Source: a virus
Lineage: Duplodnaviria > Heunggongvirae > Uroviricota > Caudoviricetes
DNA: 6,065 nt
Reading direction: 5' to 3' (one strand)
Virus record (IMG/VR): IMGVR_UViG_638341086_000005
Shown here one piece after another: positions 1-6,065 of this stretch. The first letter of the stretch is position 1; each line of letters begins with the position of its first letter. The translations under genes were made by a program, and so were the position numbers. Below the pieces are notes generated by a model. It saw nothing but the letters and a program-made list of their open reading frames with translations, did no database searches and was not told where the DNA came from.

Positions 1-66
1 ATACATGTTGATTACACTATGCATCGACAACGATGCCACATTTTTGGCTGGTTGGCAAATCTGTCA

Positions 67-252
67 TCAGGGCGGACAACAACGCCACGATCTCATCTTT
101 CTTGGGCAATTTTTAAGAAAATCCTCAAGGGCAAATCTTTTTGGCCTTGCTTCCTGTTCATGGTCAGGCATTTCATCCATTTCTCTTAATTTTTTTTCTA
201 CCTGTCTTTCAAGTATGGATAATGCGATTTCCCGTAATTCTTCGTTGTTCAT
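67..252 (-). CDS. hypothetical small protein (61 aa), second gene of leftward regulatory operon
   Basis: Minus-strand ORF with strong SD AGGAG 6-7 nt upstream of ATG (revcomp of 253-270 = ...caggagtagacaATG). Charged, helical-looking N-terminus (MNNEELREIALSILERQVEKKLREM...). Sits 57 nt downstream of the 310..507 gene on the same strand. No family recognised. Confidence 0.5.
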   Translation of the reverse strand: MNNEELREIALSILERQVEKKLREMDEMPDHEQEARPKRFALEDFLKNCPRKMRSWRCCPP

Positions 253-309
253 TGTCTACTCCTGTAAAGAAATGCGCCGTAGTTCCTCACACCACGGCGC
301 TGATAGTGA

Positions 310-507
310 TTATTCTGATTCTTTGGCCTTCCGGCGCTGTTCATATTTTAATTTGCGTCCACAGGCATCTAAGACCCATGCGGAAAAATTAGCACTAGGA
401 TTAGTTAATTTTTCTTGTTCAACGCTGGCATCAATCCCATCTATAAGCTCATGTGGGAATCGAATATTTTTCTTTGCTGATTTGTTGTTTTTGTTACCGC
501 TAGACAT
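310..507 (-). CDS. YlcI/YnfO-like small DNA-binding protein (RHH-like), putative element regulator
   Basis: Minus-strand ORF, SD GAGGTG 6 nt upstream of ATG (revcomp of 508-525). Motifs NIRFPHELIDGIDA and NFSAWVLDACGRKL resemble, from memory, prophage YlcI/YnfO proteins and the helix-2 region of ribbon-helix-helix regulators. Positioned divergently from the rep operon next to the palindromic operators. Confidence 0.55.
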   Translation of the reverse strand: MSSGNKNNKSAKKNIRFPHELIDGIDASVEQEKLTNPSANFSAWVLDACGRKLKYEQRRKAKESE

Positions 508-534
508 TGATGCACCTCACTTAAATGGACTTTA

Positions 535-614
535 TGGGCGCACACAATACAGTAAAAAAAATGAGATGTTAAGTATTGACATGTGCGCACACATGATTTT
601 AATCTGTGCGCACA
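535..614. promoter_or_regulatory. divergent control region: three TGTGCGCACA palindromic operators overlapping a sigma70-like rightward promoter
   Basis: Perfect 10-bp palindrome TGTGCGCACA at 582-591 and 605-614; 9/10 copy TGGGCGCACA at 535-544. Candidate promoter: -35 TTGACA 576-581, 16-bp spacer that is mostly the palindrome, -10 TTTAAT 598-603; the third palindrome lies at the predicted start site. Lies between divergent genes 310..507(-) and 713..916(+). Confidence 0.55.
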
Positions 615-712
615 GTTTGAGTTTTGTTACTCAAATTAAGCAACGCCCCGCAGTGCTCGCAACACATGCAGGGCGTCTAACCACCAACGATAGCAACAGT
701 ATCGAGGCAGCT

Positions 713-916
713 ATGAGAAATCATACCACACACCCGCAAGGGCGGGACTCGCACAACCTGAATAAATACATCTGGCGTTTTATCGCCCTGAGCACGGCAC
801 AACCGCGCGTGATTACCATTGAGGCCACCAGCGAACAGGAAGCGCGTCAGCAATCTCCTGATGGCTGCGTGATGGTATTCGCCGCCCGTATTCGTCAGGG
901 GGTGTTCCATGCATGA
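713..916 (+). CDS. small protein (67 aa), Icd-like (host cell division inhibitor family) candidate
   Basis: In-frame ATG at 713 inside the spurious-looking long ORF 5..916, with GAGG 5 nt upstream (704-707). Sequence YIWRFIALSTAQPRVITIEATSEQEARQQ...VMVFAARI matches my recollection of Icd-like small proteins found upstream of primase genes in P4-like elements. Family assignment is from memory only. Confidence 0.5.
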   Translation: MRNHTTHPQGRDSHNLNKYIWRFIALSTAQPRVITIEATSEQEARQQSPDGCVMVFAARIRQGVFHA

Positions 917-1229
917 CATGACCAATTACCAGTACCTGATTAATCCGCATTTTAACTGTGAGCATGATATTGCTAAAAAGGTTTATTCCGCTGCGGATGG
1001 GGCTACTGACAATATATCAATGGCTGTTTCGTCAATTGGTAGCCTGATGTGGTATGCGTCAGAAAATAAGGAATATGACGAAAAGGCCATGCGCATTGAT
1101 ATGGGTAATATCGGTTTGTTACTGGCAATGCTTGGACAGTTTGATATTTCGTTACGGTGCACCATTGAAAATGCCACAGATGCATTAAATGCTATAAAGA
1201 AAGCGAATACTGATTTAAATCGGGGATAA
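909..1229 (+). CDS. hypothetical protein (106 aa), AT-rich orphan gene
   Basis: ORF whose ATG (909) overlaps the stop of the upstream gene by 8 nt (ATGCATGA); G-rich SD-like GGGGGTG at 896-902. Visibly more AT-rich than the rep gene. No family recognised. Confidence 0.5.
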   Translation: MHDMTNYQYLINPHFNCEHDIAKKVYSAADGATDNISMAVSSIGSLMWYASENKEYDEKAMRIDMGNIGLLLAMLGQFDISLRCTIENATDALNAIKKANTDLNRG

Positions 1230-1235
1230 ATAATC

Positions 1236-1535
1236 ATGAGAACATATTTATCTGGCTTGACTGCCAGCGGTTATGCACACCCCCAAATTATCCCCGGCGC
1301 TATTTATCTGGATAAGAACGGTAACAGAGTAACGGTAAAAGAACTGATGTTTGACCGTGTGTATTTTATCCGTGATGGCTATTCATTTCTTAGTTCGCTG
1401 AACGTGGAGATCTTTATTAGCAGATTCAGGCGGGAAATCCCGCTTTCCAGAAATAACCATGTGTCATGTATGGATGTTGATAAAAAACTACAGGAACTAA
1501 AAAACATGATTGCCGCGTGGAGAGAGCAGAAATGA
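1236..1535 (+). CDS. hypothetical protein (99 aa), AT-rich orphan gene
   Basis: ORF starting 7 nt after the previous stop. Its stop overlaps the rep start codon (ATGA at 1532-1535), indicating translational coupling into rep. AT-rich. No family recognised. Confidence 0.5.
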   Translation: MRTYLSGLTASGYAHPQIIPGAIYLDKNGNRVTVKELMFDRVYFIRDGYSFLSSLNVEIFISRFRREIPLSRNNHVSCMDVDKKLQELKNMIAAWREQK

Positions 1536-3655
1536 AAAAAGCGCCAAATTTAAAACACCAGCCACGTGACAAAATGACGGAAGTCATCATTTTTGCGGGT
1601 AGTGATGCGTGGGCACATGCGAAGCAGTGGCAGGAACAGGACGGGCGACTGGCTGGCGACAGCGTGCCTCCTGTCTGGCTTGGAGAGCAACAACTTGCCG
1701 AACTGGATAAGCTGCAAATTGTGCCGGAAGGCCGAAAATCAGTACGCATATTCAGGGCCGGACATCTTGAGCCAGTAATGATCAAGGCGATTGGTCAGAA
1801 GCTGGCGGCGGCAGGCGTACAGGATGCAAATTTTTACCCTGATGGAATGCACGGTCAGGAGGTGGAGAACTGGCGCGAATATCTAGCCCGTGAGCGGCAG
1901 AATCTTTCTGATGGTCTGGTTATTGAGTTTCCGGTAAAGAAAAAAGATACCGGAAGCCATAGCGATGACGAATTAAAGCCACGCGTTGAAAGTCGCGCCG
2001 ATGGTGTTTTCTGGGTAACGCCCAAAGTGGATAAGCAGTCAGGCGAAATTATCCGGCCTGAGACGTGGTTATGTTCTCCGCTTGAACTACTGGGAACGGG
2101 GACGATCGGTAAAGAGCATTACCGCGTGATGCGCTGGAAAAAAACCGCAAACCATGAAGTCATCACAATGGCGATCCCGTGTGGTGGTATCGGCGACCGT
2201 GACGGCTGGCGGTTACTTAAAGATCACGGGCTGAACGTGACAACCAACGGCAAATACAGGGCAATCCTGGCGGACTGGATGCAGTTAAGCGGAAGCCATG
2301 AGGAATGGCAGTTAAGCACAACAACGGGCTGGCATTTTGGCGCGTACATCATGCCGGACGGTTCGATCATTGGTGAATCTGAAAAACCGATCCTGTTTAC
2401 CGGAAAAAGCGCCGCGATTAACGGTTATTCCGTGGCGGGCACGGCGGATGGCTGGCGCGACAGCGTGGCGCGTCTGGCTGGCGGTAATGCCTCAATGATG
2501 CTGGGTGTGGCAACGTCACTGGCAGCGCCTTTAATTGGCCTTGTGGGTGCTGACGGCTTCGGGGTGCATCTTTTCGAACAGTCATCGGCAGGTAAGACCA
2601 CCACGCAGAACATCGCATCAAGTTTATGGGGAGAGCCGGACGCGCAGCGGCTGACCTGGTACGGCACGGCGTTAGGTATTGCCAATGAGGCCGAGGCCCA
2701 TAATGACGGGCTTTTACCACTGGATGAGATAGGCCAGGCCGGAAATGCGCGGGAAGTGTCAACGTCTGCTTATACGCTGTTTAACGGTTCAGGGAAATTG
2801 CAGGGGGCGAAGGATGGCGGCAACAGGGAGATCAAACACTGGCGAACGGTGGCAATCAGCACCGGAGAAATGGACGTTGAGACATTCCTCAAAAGTGAGG
2901 GGATAAAAGTTAAGGCGGGGCAGCTTGTCCGACTGCTTAACGTTCCGATGGAAAAAGCCACGAAATTTCACGAATACAGCAACGGTAAGGAACATGCTGA
3001 CGCGTTAAAGGATGCCTGGACAGCAAATCACGGGGCGGCGGGTCGTGAGTGGGTTAAATGGCTGGCAGGCCACCAGCAGGAGGCAAAGGATACGGTAAGG
3101 GAATGCCGCGAACGGTGGCGCAACCTGATACCGGAGAGCTACGGCGAGCAGGTCCACCGCGTGGGTGAACGTTTCGCCATACTGGAGGCCGCGCTTGTGC
3201 TTTCCGGTCATGTAACTGGCTGGGTCGTGCAGGAATGCCGCGACGCGATACAGCATAACTTTAATGCCTGGGTGAAGGAGTTCGGCACGGGTAACAGGGA
3301 ATTTAAACAGATGGTTGAACAGGCTGAGGCGTTTTTGTCGTCGTTTGGGTTTAGCCGCTACCTTCCGTACCCCAATACAGATGAGCGTGATTTACCGATT
3401 AAAGAGCTTGCCGGATACAGAAAAGGGAGCATTCGCAACGAAGATGACGAGATGCGCTATTACACGTTCCCGCACGTGTTTGAGAGTGAGATAGCGAAGG
3501 GATTTAATCCGGCGCATTTTGCGCGTGCCCTGGATGCTGCCGGAATGCTGGAGAAGGGAAGCGATCGCCGATACAAAAAAAAGGCGCTGGGCAAGATTGG
3601 GGGTAAGCAGCATGTTTTTTACGTGCTGATGTTCCAGCCTGATGATGAAGATTAA
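1532..3655 (+). CDS. replication initiator, primase/helicase-like P-loop NTPase (DUF927-type / satellite Pri-Rep-like)
   Basis: Longest ORF in the window. Probable start ATG 1532 (SD GGAGAGAG at 1519-1526) rather than the GTG at 1517. Walker A-like FEQSSAGKTTT (~2575-2607) and Walker B-like LLPLDEIG (~2710-2735). TTTGWHFGAYIMPDGSIIG segment resembles DUF927-type replication proteins. Followed directly by the iteron array, as expected for a cis-acting initiator. Confidence 0.8.
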   Translation: MKKAPNLKHQPRDKMTEVIIFAGSDAWAHAKQWQEQDGRLAGDSVPPVWLGEQQLAELDKLQIVPEGRKSVRIFRAGHLEPVMIKAIGQKLAAAGVQDANFYPDGMHGQEVENWREYLARERQNLSDGLVIEFPVKKKDTGSHSDDELKPRVESRADGVFWVTPKVDKQSGEIIRPETWLCSPLELLGTGTIGKEHYRVMRWKKTANHEVITMAIPCGGIGDRDGWRLLKDHGLNVTTNGKYRAILADWMQLSGSHEEWQLSTTTGWHFGAYIMPDGSIIGESEKPILFTGKSAAINGYSVAGTADGWRDSVARLAGGNASMMLGVATSLAAPLIGLVGADGFGVHLFEQSSAGKTTTQNIASSLWGEPDAQRLTWYGTALGIANEAEAHNDGLLPLDEIGQAGNAREVSTSAYTLFNGSGKLQGAKDGGNREIKHWRTVAISTGEMDVETFLKSEGIKVKAGQLVRLLNVPMEKATKFHEYSNGKEHADALKDAWTANHGAAGREWVKWLAGHQQEAKDTVRECRERWRNLIPESYGEQVHRVGERFAILEAALVLSGHVTGWVVQECRDAIQHNFNAWVKEFGTGNREFKQMVEQAEAFLSSFGFSRYLPYPNTDERDLPIKELAGYRKGSIRNEDDEMRYYTFPHVFESEIAKGFNPAHFARALDAAGMLEKGSDRRYKKKALGKIGGKQHVFYVLMFQPDDED

Positions 3656-3677
3656 TCCCCTGTGTGAGGAAAAAAAT

Positions 3678-3993
3678 TGCGGGTTATGCGGGTTATCCTG
3701 TGTATAAGTGTATTAAGTGCATGAATATAAAGGAAACCAATAACCCGCACGTAACCCGCAAAATGGCATTTATAACCCGCAAAAGCACGATTATAACCCG
3801 CAGGCGAATAACTGAAGTAACACCGGACAGTCATGCGTAACCCGCAGAAAAAACCCCGTTTGCGGGTTATTTTGAGCGTTTTGCGGGTTACGTGGTGAGC
3901 AAATAATAAACAGGGCGTTTTGCAAAATACTGATATAAAAGGATAAAAAATGGTTAGCACGCTAAGATAACCCAATAACCCGCATAACCCGCA
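3678..3993. repeat. iteron array / putative origin of replication (9-mer TAACCCGCA, 11 perfect copies, both orientations) with AT-rich tracts
   Basis: TGCGGGTTA at 3678-3686, 3687-3695, 3861-3869, 3882-3890. Reverse complement TAACCCGCA at 3741-3749, 3752-3760, 3773-3781, 3794-3802, 3838-3846, 3976-3984, 3985-3993, plus degenerate TAACCCAA at 3968-3975. Spacings of 9, 11, 21, 21 and 21 bp are near helical-turn multiples. AT-rich stretches at 3901-3960 and 4001-4013 (TATATATATAAAT) are candidate unwinding elements. No credible coding capacity (only a low-complexity antisense ORF). Confidence 0.75.
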
Positions 3994-4025
3994 CATGTTT
4001 CTATATATATAAATTGAGGTGGCAA

Positions 4026-4277
4026 ATGACCAGAACACGCAGAGACAGAACAGAGCCAAAATATAAAGCGTTAGACATGACTGAGCACACCTTAAAGGTG
4101 GCAATCAGAACGATAGACCGCCACACGCGGGAAGGATACGCGAAGGAACATCCCGACCTGATAAGCGCATTCATGACCACGGCGGCGGCAAACTTTGCCA
4201 CGCTGACAGAACGGGAGATTGCCGAAGCGGAACAGGTAACAACCATCAACGTTAAAACCGGAGAGGTGGAATCATGA
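4026..4277 (+). CDS. hypothetical protein (83 aa), translationally coupled to ssb
   Basis: ATG at 4026 with SD GAGGTGG at 4016-4022; the track's 4014 start is a TTG a few codons upstream. Stop overlaps the ssb start (ATGA at 4274-4277). No family recognised. Confidence 0.55.
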   Translation: MTRTRRDRTEPKYKALDMTEHTLKVAIRTIDRHTREGYAKEHPDLISAFMTTAAANFATLTEREIAEAEQVTTINVKTGEVES

Positions 4278-4684
4278 CAGCACAGATAGCGGCTTACGGT
4301 CGGCTGGTGGACGACCCGCAGGTAAAACAGACCAGCAAGGGCACACCGATGACGCTGGCGCGTATGGCGGTATCACTGCCATGCAGTCAGGCACAGGACG
4401 GACAGGCGACGTTATGGCTATCGGTCATCGCATTTGGTAAGCAGGCCGACTTCCTGGCTAAACATCAAAAAGGCGACGTTGCCAGCGTATCCGGCACGAT
4501 GCAGGTCAGCCAGTGGACCGGACAGAACGGGGAGACGCGTCAGGGTTATCAGGTTATTGCAGACAGCGTAATCAGTGCCCGTGCGGCACGTCCTGGCGGG
4601 AACAGACGCAAAACCACAGGCGCACAGGGTAATCAGCCACCAGCGGGAGGCGATGACCCTTACGGTGATGATATTCCGTTCTGA
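4274..4684 (+). CDS. ssb: single-stranded DNA-binding protein (SSB)
   Basis: OB-fold-like N-terminal region (GRLVDDPQVKQTSKGTPMTLARMAV...WLSVIAFGKQADFL...SVSGTMQVSQWTGQNGETRQGYQVIADSV), a Gly/Pro/Gln-rich linker, and the canonical acidic SSB tail ...DDPYGDDIPF at the C-terminus. SD GAGGTGGA at 4263-4270. Confidence 0.85.
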   Translation: MTAQIAAYGRLVDDPQVKQTSKGTPMTLARMAVSLPCSQAQDGQATLWLSVIAFGKQADFLAKHQKGDVASVSGTMQVSQWTGQNGETRQGYQVIADSVISARAARPGGNRRKTTGAQGNQPPAGGDDPYGDDIPF

Positions 4685-4694
4685 GGGGGTGACG

Positions 4695-4967
4695 ATGGTA
4701 CATGACCGCATAGCGGAAGAACTCGAAGCGAAAGGATTTTACCGGAGGGCGGCGGCGCGATGGGGTGAAGTCATGATGCTGGTGGAGACAGACAAGGAAC
4801 GGCATCACATCACGATGCGACGGCTGGAATGTTCCAGGAAGGCACAGAGGCCACCGGAGCCGCCGGATAATTACGGAGACCTGAAAAAGGCGGTCGATCG
4901 CACTTATGCCGAAATGGGTATGGATGGTGCTGGTGATGAAATATGGCGAAATTACCAGGACAGATAA
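4695..4967 (+). CDS. PerC-like small transcriptional activator family protein (90 aa)
   Basis: ATG 4695 with SD GAGGGGGTGA (4683-4692) just after the ssb stop; the track's 4575 start would overlap ssb out of frame. N-terminus MVHDRIAEELEAKGFYRRAAARWGEVMM resembles, from memory, PerC-family proteins encoded by E. coli prophages. Followed by an intrinsic terminator. Confidence 0.55.
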   Translation: MVHDRIAEELEAKGFYRRAAARWGEVMMLVETDKERHHITMRRLECSRKAQRPPEPPDNYGDLKKAVDRTYAEMGMDGAGDEIWRNYQDR

Positions 4968-4973
4968 TCACAC

Positions 4974-4996
4974 AGCCGGAGCAATCCGGCTTTTTG
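4974..4996 (+). terminator. rho-independent terminator ending the rep-ssb-perC-like transcription unit
   Basis: Stem AGCCGGA (4974-4980), loop GCAA, stem TCCGGCT (4985-4991), running into a T tract (TTTTTGT) 7 nt after the TAA stop at 4965-4967. Confidence 0.65.
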
Positions 4997-5117
4997 TCAT
5001 GTTTTGTAAATTATTTGTTCGTGGTTGTTCCACGTTGTTCGCTGACCGGATCGGCATATTTTACCCGAACTGAATCATGATTATTCTCGCCCGTGGTGCC
5101 AGGACGCTGGGGCCACT

Positions 5118-5163
5118 TTCCCGCCTGTTAATGTGCTCGCCAATATTCATTACCAGGCGGGAA
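5118..5163. promoter_or_regulatory. perfect 10-bp inverted repeat TTCCCGCCTG-N26-CAGGCGGGAA in the capsid-gene upstream region
   Basis: TTCCCGCCTG at 5118-5127 and its exact reverse complement CAGGCGGGAA at 5154-5163. No following U tract, so more likely a protein-binding dyad or RNA structure than a terminator. Confidence 0.35.
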
Positions 5164-5217
5164 AATGATCGGTGCGATTGCTGATTTCCTTATGAAAAAC
5201 GGTTGAGTGTTTGCCGC

Positions 5218-5254
5218 GTCCTGGAGTTCCTTACTTAACTTCAGGACTTTTTTT
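5218..5254 (+). terminator. terminator-like hairpin plus T7 tract abutting the capsid start codon; possible attenuator / RBS-sequestering leader structure
   Basis: Stem GTCCTGGAG (5218-5226) pairs with CTTCAGGAC (5239-5247): 9 bp with one G-U. 12-nt loop. Seven Ts at 5248-5254, then ATG at 5255. The only SD-like element for the capsid gene (AGGA 5243-5246) lies in the 3' arm of the stem. Confidence 0.4.
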
Positions 5255-5986
5255 ATGCCGAGAATAATCGAATTACGCCAGCAGAAAACCGCCATTAAAA
5301 ATCAGATGCGCGACATGCTGGAGAACGCGGAAAAAGAAAACCGCAGCCTTAACGATGCTGAGGGCGCAAAATTTGACGAATTACGCGCTAAAGCTGAATC
5401 CCTCGATAAAGACATTTCCCGCCTTGAAGCCATTGCAGACGAAGAGCGCAGTAAACCAGGCAAAAACAGCCAGACCACTGACCCCGCAGAACTACGCAAC
5501 TACATTCTGACAGGTGAAACCCGCGCATTAAGTACAGGCGTTCCCGCTGATGGTGGTTATACCGTTATCCCCGAACTGAACACCGAAATCATGCGAATGC
5601 TGGCGGATGAGTCCACCATGCGCCGCATCTGTACCGTGAAGAAAATCAGCAGCAACGAGTTTAAGCAGCTTGTTTCCGCTGGCGGTGCGACCGTTAACCA
5701 CGGTGAAGAGGGTAAGACACGCGAACAGACCAGCACCCCGCAGATTAACGAGGTGAGCATTAAGCTGTATCCGGTCTATGCGTACCCGCGCACCACACAG
5801 GAAATCGTGGATTTTTCCGATGTGGACATCCTTTCATGGCTGACGGGTGAGATTGGCGACACCTTCACGGAAACCGAAGAAAGCGATCTGGTTGTGGGCG
5901 ACGGTGACAAAAAGCAAAAGGTTTTTTATCCGTACCCCGTGCAGAGAAGAACGACAAAGAGCGTGATTTTGGTACGTTGCACGTAA
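5255..5986 (+). CDS. major capsid protein, HK97-type (N-terminal ~60%; reading frame interrupted near 5909-5914)
   Basis: ATG 5255 (the track's 5207 start is a GTG inside the hairpin). N-terminal coiled-coil-like delta-domain region (IIELRQQKTAIKNQMRDMLENAEKENRSLNDAEGAKFDELRAKAESLDKDISRLEAI) followed by GGYTVIPELNTEIMRMLADESTMRRICTV, typical of HK97-fold capsid proteins. In-frame product stops at 5986, but the ORF continues in the -1 frame (see next feature). Confidence 0.7.
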   Translation: MPRIIELRQQKTAIKNQMRDMLENAEKENRSLNDAEGAKFDELRAKAESLDKDISRLEAIADEERSKPGKNSQTTDPAELRNYILTGETRALSTGVPADGGYTVIPELNTEIMRMLADESTMRRICTVKKISSNEFKQLVSAGGATVNHGEEGKTREQTSTPQINEVSIKLYPVYAYPRTTQEIVDFSDVDILSWLTGEIGDTFTETEESDLVVGDGDKKQKVFYPYPVQRRTTKSVILVRCT

Positions 5987-6065
5987 TTAAACCTTCCGAA
6001 TCTCTGGCGTGGACATCTGCGGACCCGCTGATCGACCTGAAATTTGCATTACGTAAAAATACCGC
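5909..6065 (+). other. continuation of capsid coding sequence in -1 frame (open to window end), implying a frameshift / pseudogene / sequencing indel
   Basis: From the A-rich run GACAAAAAGCAAAAGG (5906-5921) the -1 frame reads ...KAKGFLSVPRAEKNDKERDFGTLHVIKPSESLAWTSADPLIDLKFALRKNT with no stop to 6065 and E. coli-like codons. Joined to the upstream frame it gives GDGDKKAKGFLS, close to the GDG-x-KP-x-G-(I/F)-L motif of HK97-family capsids. That frame has a TGA at 5905-5907, so the switch must occur within 5908-5920. Confidence 0.45.

Follow-up and report, generated by a model that had tools for sequence, protein, structure and literature searches.

The frameshift that appears to interrupt the major capsid gene in the DNA analyzed here (a stretch of 6,065 nucleotides, hereafter the window) is probably a sequencing or assembly error located at the end of the sequence and not a biological feature of the element. 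The real gene would be an ordinary intact gene encoding a 385-aa HK97-fold capsid protein, without any recoding. The window copy departs from its relatives by three differences clustered at its 3′ end, and the -1 frame that follows the break encodes capsid sequence. From these differences, their uniqueness, their clustering and this capsid identity, all of which were directly observed, we infer errors rather than mutations. There is nothing novel in the apparent frameshift. The chief value of this work lies in quality control: an uncritical reading of the sequence would lead to the annotation of a capsid pseudogene or to the proposal of a candidate for recoding, and the evidence is against both. 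The same approach (finding a near-identical relative, listing all the differences, then testing whether they are private and clustered at an end) can be reused for other "frameshifts" located in homopolymers.

Two reading frames of a single capsid gene

The first-pass annotation, made from the letters of the window, had described a capsid ORF closing at position 5986 after about 244 codons. This ORF is indeed present and extends from an ATG to a TAA (Table 1). Its product matches the Pfam Phage_capsid profile (PF05065) with a score of 86.6 bits for a gathering cut-off of 24.2. The match covers residues 100-220 of the product, corresponding to positions 1-122 of the 280 positions of the profile, and it ends at residue 220, which is the AAG codon of the junction. 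The break, at profile position 122 of 280, falls midway through the HK97 fold. A single -1 repair, in which the two frames are spliced, lengthens the coverage of PF05065 to positions 1-142, and the intact orthologues cover positions 1-279 of 280. No single frame of the window copy holds the complete Phage_capsid domain, the rest of the gene being located beyond the window.

In the -1 frame, a TGA occupies 5905-5907, and no further stop codon is found between 5908 and the last base of the window. Its translation from 5908 is QKAKGFLSVPRAEKNDKERDFGTLHVIKPSESLAWTSADPLIDLKFALRKNT, and the reading past the CAAAAAG run includes KKAKGFLSVPRAEKNDKERDFGTLHVIKPSESLAWTSADPLIDLKFALRKNT. The peptide encoded in this frame by positions 5914-6063 was found to be identical at 47 of 49 residues to residues 221-269 of PDB 9gyi_B (E=1e-25), a 385-aa protein described as "Major head protein". 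The proposal that the -1 frame restores a capsid-like sequence was therefore correct and, as judged from these sequence comparisons, the likeness is not a chance resemblance. An alignment of the two frames to capsid profiles had been advised at that stage; carried out with PF05065 and 9gyi_B, it indicates that both frames are capsid and that they are joined at the A run. The 23-aa tail of the zero frame has no match among the sequences of solved structures (PDB; best E=1.2). The possibility that this tail is an alternative C-terminus of its own was considered and discarded, given this lack of a PDB match and the closure of the frame after 23 codons.

Table 1. Features of the interrupted capsid gene and of its private differences (window coordinates).
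Feature	Position	Strand	Description
Zero-frame capsid ORF, truncated	5255-5986	+	ATG at 5255, TAA at 5984-5986, 243 codons plus stop
Product of the 5255-5986 ORF			residues 1-220, authentic capsid; residues 221-243, out-of-frame
-1-frame continuation	5908-6063	+	codes for capsid residues 219-269
First one-base deficit	5909-5913	+	A5 (A6 in relatives), inside CAAAAAG 5908-5914; orthologue alignments
Unique C	5982	+	G in relatives; orthologue alignments
Second one-base deficit	6055-6059	+	A5 (A6 in relatives); orthologue alignments

Three differences clustered at the 3′ end of the window

A base-by-base alignment with three orthologues showed that the break of the frame in the CAAAAAG run corresponds to one missing A. 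It also revealed a second A6-to-A5 loss and a substitution, both of which were beyond what the first-pass annotation could see. The G-to-C substitution changes a Gln into a His in the true capsid frame; in the zero frame, it belongs to the codon ACG (5981-5983; AGG in the relatives), located directly before the TAA. The second loss, 6 bases short of the window end, disrupts the restored frame for a second time, the wild-type RKKYR becoming RKNT. The earlier statement that the -1 frame is open to the end of the window holds from 5908 onwards as far as stop codons are concerned, but this second deficit takes it out of the capsid frame.

The closest relative of the window (locus L045, GCA_038070665.1) was found by an exact look-up of the primase allele of the window. 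Over the 5,191 bases aligned with it (positions 875-6065 of the window), only a single mismatch and two gaps were found. These are the three differences described above and all lie inside the last 157 bases, the 5,034 bases that precede the junction showing none. If differences were placed uniformly, the probability of finding all three in the last 157 bases would be about 3e-5. All the other homopolymers of at least 6 bases found in 875-6065 (12 of 12, up to A8 and T8 and including A7, A8 and T7 runs) agree with this relative. At the other end, bases 1-843 of the window are identical to those of strain ESDR8.

Distribution of the variants in other genomes

The comparison with orthologous elements, which had also been recommended, revealed no capsid gene ending at the break: wherever examined, the orthologues read on as a single 385-aa ORF with six A at this site. 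The gene is present in 357 complete E. coli genomes (375 places, with up to three copies per genome), of which none has an exact match to the A5 junction and all have A6 at the first site. Over positions 5955-6065 of the window, none of 351 complete E. coli genomes reaches 99% identity; the best value, 98.2%, is exactly that expected from the mismatch plus the gap. Exact-pattern scans of IMG/VR found no contig with the A5 junction, with the C at 5982 or with the second A5, and found the A6 junction in 24 contigs. The A5 junction is likewise absent from the JGI metagenome contigs and from the GTDB representative genomes (exact-pattern scans). In the loci that were fetched and include the capsid gene, the first site is A6 in 32 of 32, a count in which 24 loci had been chosen by the A6 pattern itself and only the other eight are independent at this site. 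The second site is A6 in 31 of 31 fetched loci and position 5982 is G in 28 of 28.

The truncated capsid, whether it starts at the ATG (243 aa) or at a GTG (259 aa), is absent as an exact product from an index of 153 billion genes, unlike the SSB and primase alleles of the window, which are common. Three loci that carry the identical primase (L040, L043 and L045) possess the intact 385-aa capsid gene.

The island and a solved capsid of its type

Judged by its near-identical relatives, the window probably corresponds to the regulatory and replication half of a capsid-forming PICI (cf-PICI) of E. coli, followed by about the initial two thirds of its capsid gene. It includes the Icd-like, DUF4222, primase, SSB and PerC genes and the 5′ part of the capsid gene. 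In the relatives, the order is: integrase, AlpA-type regulator, YlcI/YnfO, Icd-like, DUF4222, DUF927 primase, SSB, PerC and major capsid, and then S78 prohead protease, portal, head closure, connector, HNH, TerS and TerL, without any tail genes. This complete tail-less layout was observed in the closest relative, L045, and in L001 (99.0% identity to the window). We take the combination of capsid, protease, portal, head-tail connectors, HNH and terminase subunits without tail genes to be the layout of cf-PICIs.

An island of this kind has been reported to form capsids of its own, to which the tails of a helper phage are added (10.1101/2025.02.11.637232). The capsid of the cf-PICI EcCIEDL933 has an HK97 fold with T=4 and 240 subunits, its "connector loop" corresponds to residues 227-248, and mutations of D257, K290, D295, E319 and R345 reduce or abolish the transfer of the island (10.1101/2025.02.11.637232). 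The capsid of the closest relative of the window belongs to this type, since it matches residues 1-385 of 9gyi_B (PDB 9gyi, 385 aa) with E=8e-256. The two frames of the window together give residues 1-269 of the same protein with one substitution but, unlike the EcCIEDL933-type capsid, the window copy reads as broken at residue 220 and once more at residue 269. Since the break at residue 220 is located upstream of the connector loop and of the residues needed for transfer, the truncated protein would not be able to build a capsid.

Error, mutation or recoding

An error at the end of the sequence would have arisen from a poor consensus at the 3′ end, leading to two A6-to-A5 under-calls and one substitution. 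Candidate sources are a contig end with low coverage or a contig that breaks within a multi-copy gene of the island, in combination with a platform or an assembler that miscounts homopolymers. Position 6065 is probably the end of a contig: the length of the window, 6065, is not a round number and would fit either a whole contig or its last piece. The three variants have what is looked for in artefacts, i.e. they are private and clustered where quality would drop, and two of them are A6-to-A5 losses in homopolymers. Single-base deficits in two A6 runs, private and located at the extreme end, resemble the homopolymer miscalls known from assemblies, but they differ from the platform-wide kind because the other homopolymers of the window are correct, so that the problem would be local. 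A homopolymer error extending over the whole window, which would be the signature of nanopore, 454 or Ion Torrent, was rejected since 12 other runs match the closest relative and positions 1-843 are identical to ESDR8. The import of the end by recombination from a divergent allele was also rejected, the variants being found in none of about 350 complete genomes nor in IMG/VR. Given the accuracy of the rest of the window (12 homopolymers and a clean 5′ end), an error requires a local drop of quality at one end only. Both this requirement and the fact that A6-to-A5 losses by replication slippage are also common natural mutations count against an error. In the main rival reading, the A5 frameshift, alone or together with the other two changes, would be a real and very recent inactivation making the capsid gene a pseudogene and leaving the island without capsids of its own. 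Pseudogenes do exist in these islands, as exemplified by the PerC gene of TOE17 and of isolate AF39 (see below), and the remainder of the window is of high quality. However, we consider such an inactivation unlikely: with no difference in the preceding 5,034 bases, neutral decay predicts about zero in the next 157, where two further changes are found, one of them being another A6-to-A5 loss; the variants occur in no other genome or contig searched; and nothing in this reading accounts for the three changes lying together in the terminal bases of the window. It is because the second A6-to-A5 loss and the unique substitution cluster with the first loss in the terminal 157 bases that we prefer an error over a real pseudogene. 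That all three changes are real, which would make the element a capsid-null cf-PICI at the first step of its decay with the rest identical to functional copies, seems quite unlikely. If they were, the N-terminal capsid fragment of 220 residues might disturb the capsid assembly of co-resident islands, and a trace-level rescue by slippage of tRNA-Lys on A_AAG might occur. Even so, the window would only carry one copy, disabled not long ago, of a satellite family that is already well described, without any new mechanism.

The full-length capsid could also be restored from the sequence as it stands by programmed or adventitious recoding, either through a -1 slip of the ribosome on C_AAA_AAG or through stuttering of the RNA polymerase. 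We reject programmed frameshifting, and we regard recoding of any of these kinds as extremely improbable. A slip of the A-site tRNA-Lys from AAG (5912-5914) to AAA (5911-5913) would yield exactly the wild-type ...GDGDKKAKGF, and no tetramer is more prone to shifting in E. coli than A_AA.G (PMC4066793). However, stimulator-less tetramers promote about 0.15% shifting in E. coli for a background of 0.11%, and A_AA.G is efficient only when accompanied by a strong pseudoknot (PMC4066793). In the 81 nt located downstream of the motif, the predicted folding energy is -17.7 kcal/mol (z=-1.81), a value reached by 12 of 200 shuffled sequences in a pseudoknot-free model, and no distinct local hairpin was found 5-8 nt after CAAAAAG. 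The first-pass annotation had likened the junction to the slippery site of dnaX. This comparison stands for the AAA_AAG core, on which a -1 re-pairing of tRNA-Lys is possible as at the A_AAA_AAG sites of dnaX and of the IS3 family, which have an upstream SD-like sequence and a downstream structure. It fails for the first base: C_AAA_AAG lacks the first A, which breaks the X_XXZ_ZZN rule defining slippery heptamers (PMC4066793) and leaves only an A_AAG tetramer. Furthermore, unlike the dnaX and IS3 sites, the site found in the window shows no significant downstream structure in the pseudoknot-free model, is not conserved in orthologues, falls inside a fold and not at a domain boundary, and would need a second shift at AAA_AAT (6055-6060), which is even less slippery. 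RNA polymerase is not known to slip efficiently on a run as short as A5. The orthologues are in one frame with A6, and no conserved two-frame arrangement was detected (0 of 357 genomes and 0 of 32 loci). Besides, a capsid takes hundreds of subunits, and a structural protein needed in such numbers could not be supplied in this way. The earlier judgement that an indel is likelier than programmed frameshifting thus agrees with the single 385-aa ORF of the orthologues, with their A6 and with the position of the break inside the fold. The location of the break in a homopolymer within a coding sequence could also evoke phase-variable (contingency) expression, the length of the A tract switching the capsid on or off in the population. 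This is hardly conceivable, and we reject it because the length of the tract does not vary across strains: A6 is invariant at both sites (357 genomes with 375 places and 32 fetched loci at the first one, 351 genomes at the second one). Typical contingency tracts are longer than six bases.

Other features of the island

A dense field of iterons was found at 3677-3993, in a non-coding gap of 370 bp that follows the DUF927 primase gene. It includes about 13 copies in both orientations: the 9-10-mer (A/G)TAACCCGCA has seven copies in one orientation, and about six copies of its complement TGCGGGTTA(T/C) are found in the other one. The spacing is often 9, 11 or 21 bp, and the field is followed by an AT-rich palindrome at 3998-4013. 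The 3677-3993 region is probably the replication origin of the island.

The primase-SSB-PerC module, with identical primase and SSB alleles, precedes two unrelated head modules in different strains: (i) a lambda gpE-type capsid (PF03864) with a head decoration protein (PF02924) in loci L028-L034, L038, L039, L041, L042 and L044, and (ii) an HK97-type set of capsid, protease, portal and terminase in loci L035, L037, L040, L043 and L045. In the loci of the PF03864 group, the similarity to the window ends at about 4918-4995, at the 3′ end of PerC. It looks as if classical and capsid-forming PICIs had exchanged modules where PerC meets the capsid gene.

The window itself is a mosaic. Its positions 1-843 correspond to the island of ESDR8, which carries a different replication gene (AAA-ATPase), and from 875 onward it follows L045. 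The differences concentrate at 844-906, within the Icd-like gene, and point to a recombination junction there.

The PerC gene (4695-4967) is intact in the window, with a TAC codon at 4740-4742. In TOE17, otherwise the closest complete genome, PerC has a TAG at the equivalent of window position 4742 and is annotated with an "internal stop"; in isolate AF39, it is frameshifted. Accessory genes of these islands do become genuine pseudogenes.

Finally, an open frame of 303 codons (5-916, plus strand) lies antisense over two genes of the minus strand, a 61-aa ORF (67-252) and a gene of the YlcI/YnfO family (310-507). Some gene callers predict products of 219-307 aa without any Pfam match in the 5-916 region. 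In RefSeq, only the 3′ part of this frame is annotated, under the name of an Icd-like cell-division inhibitor whose length varies.
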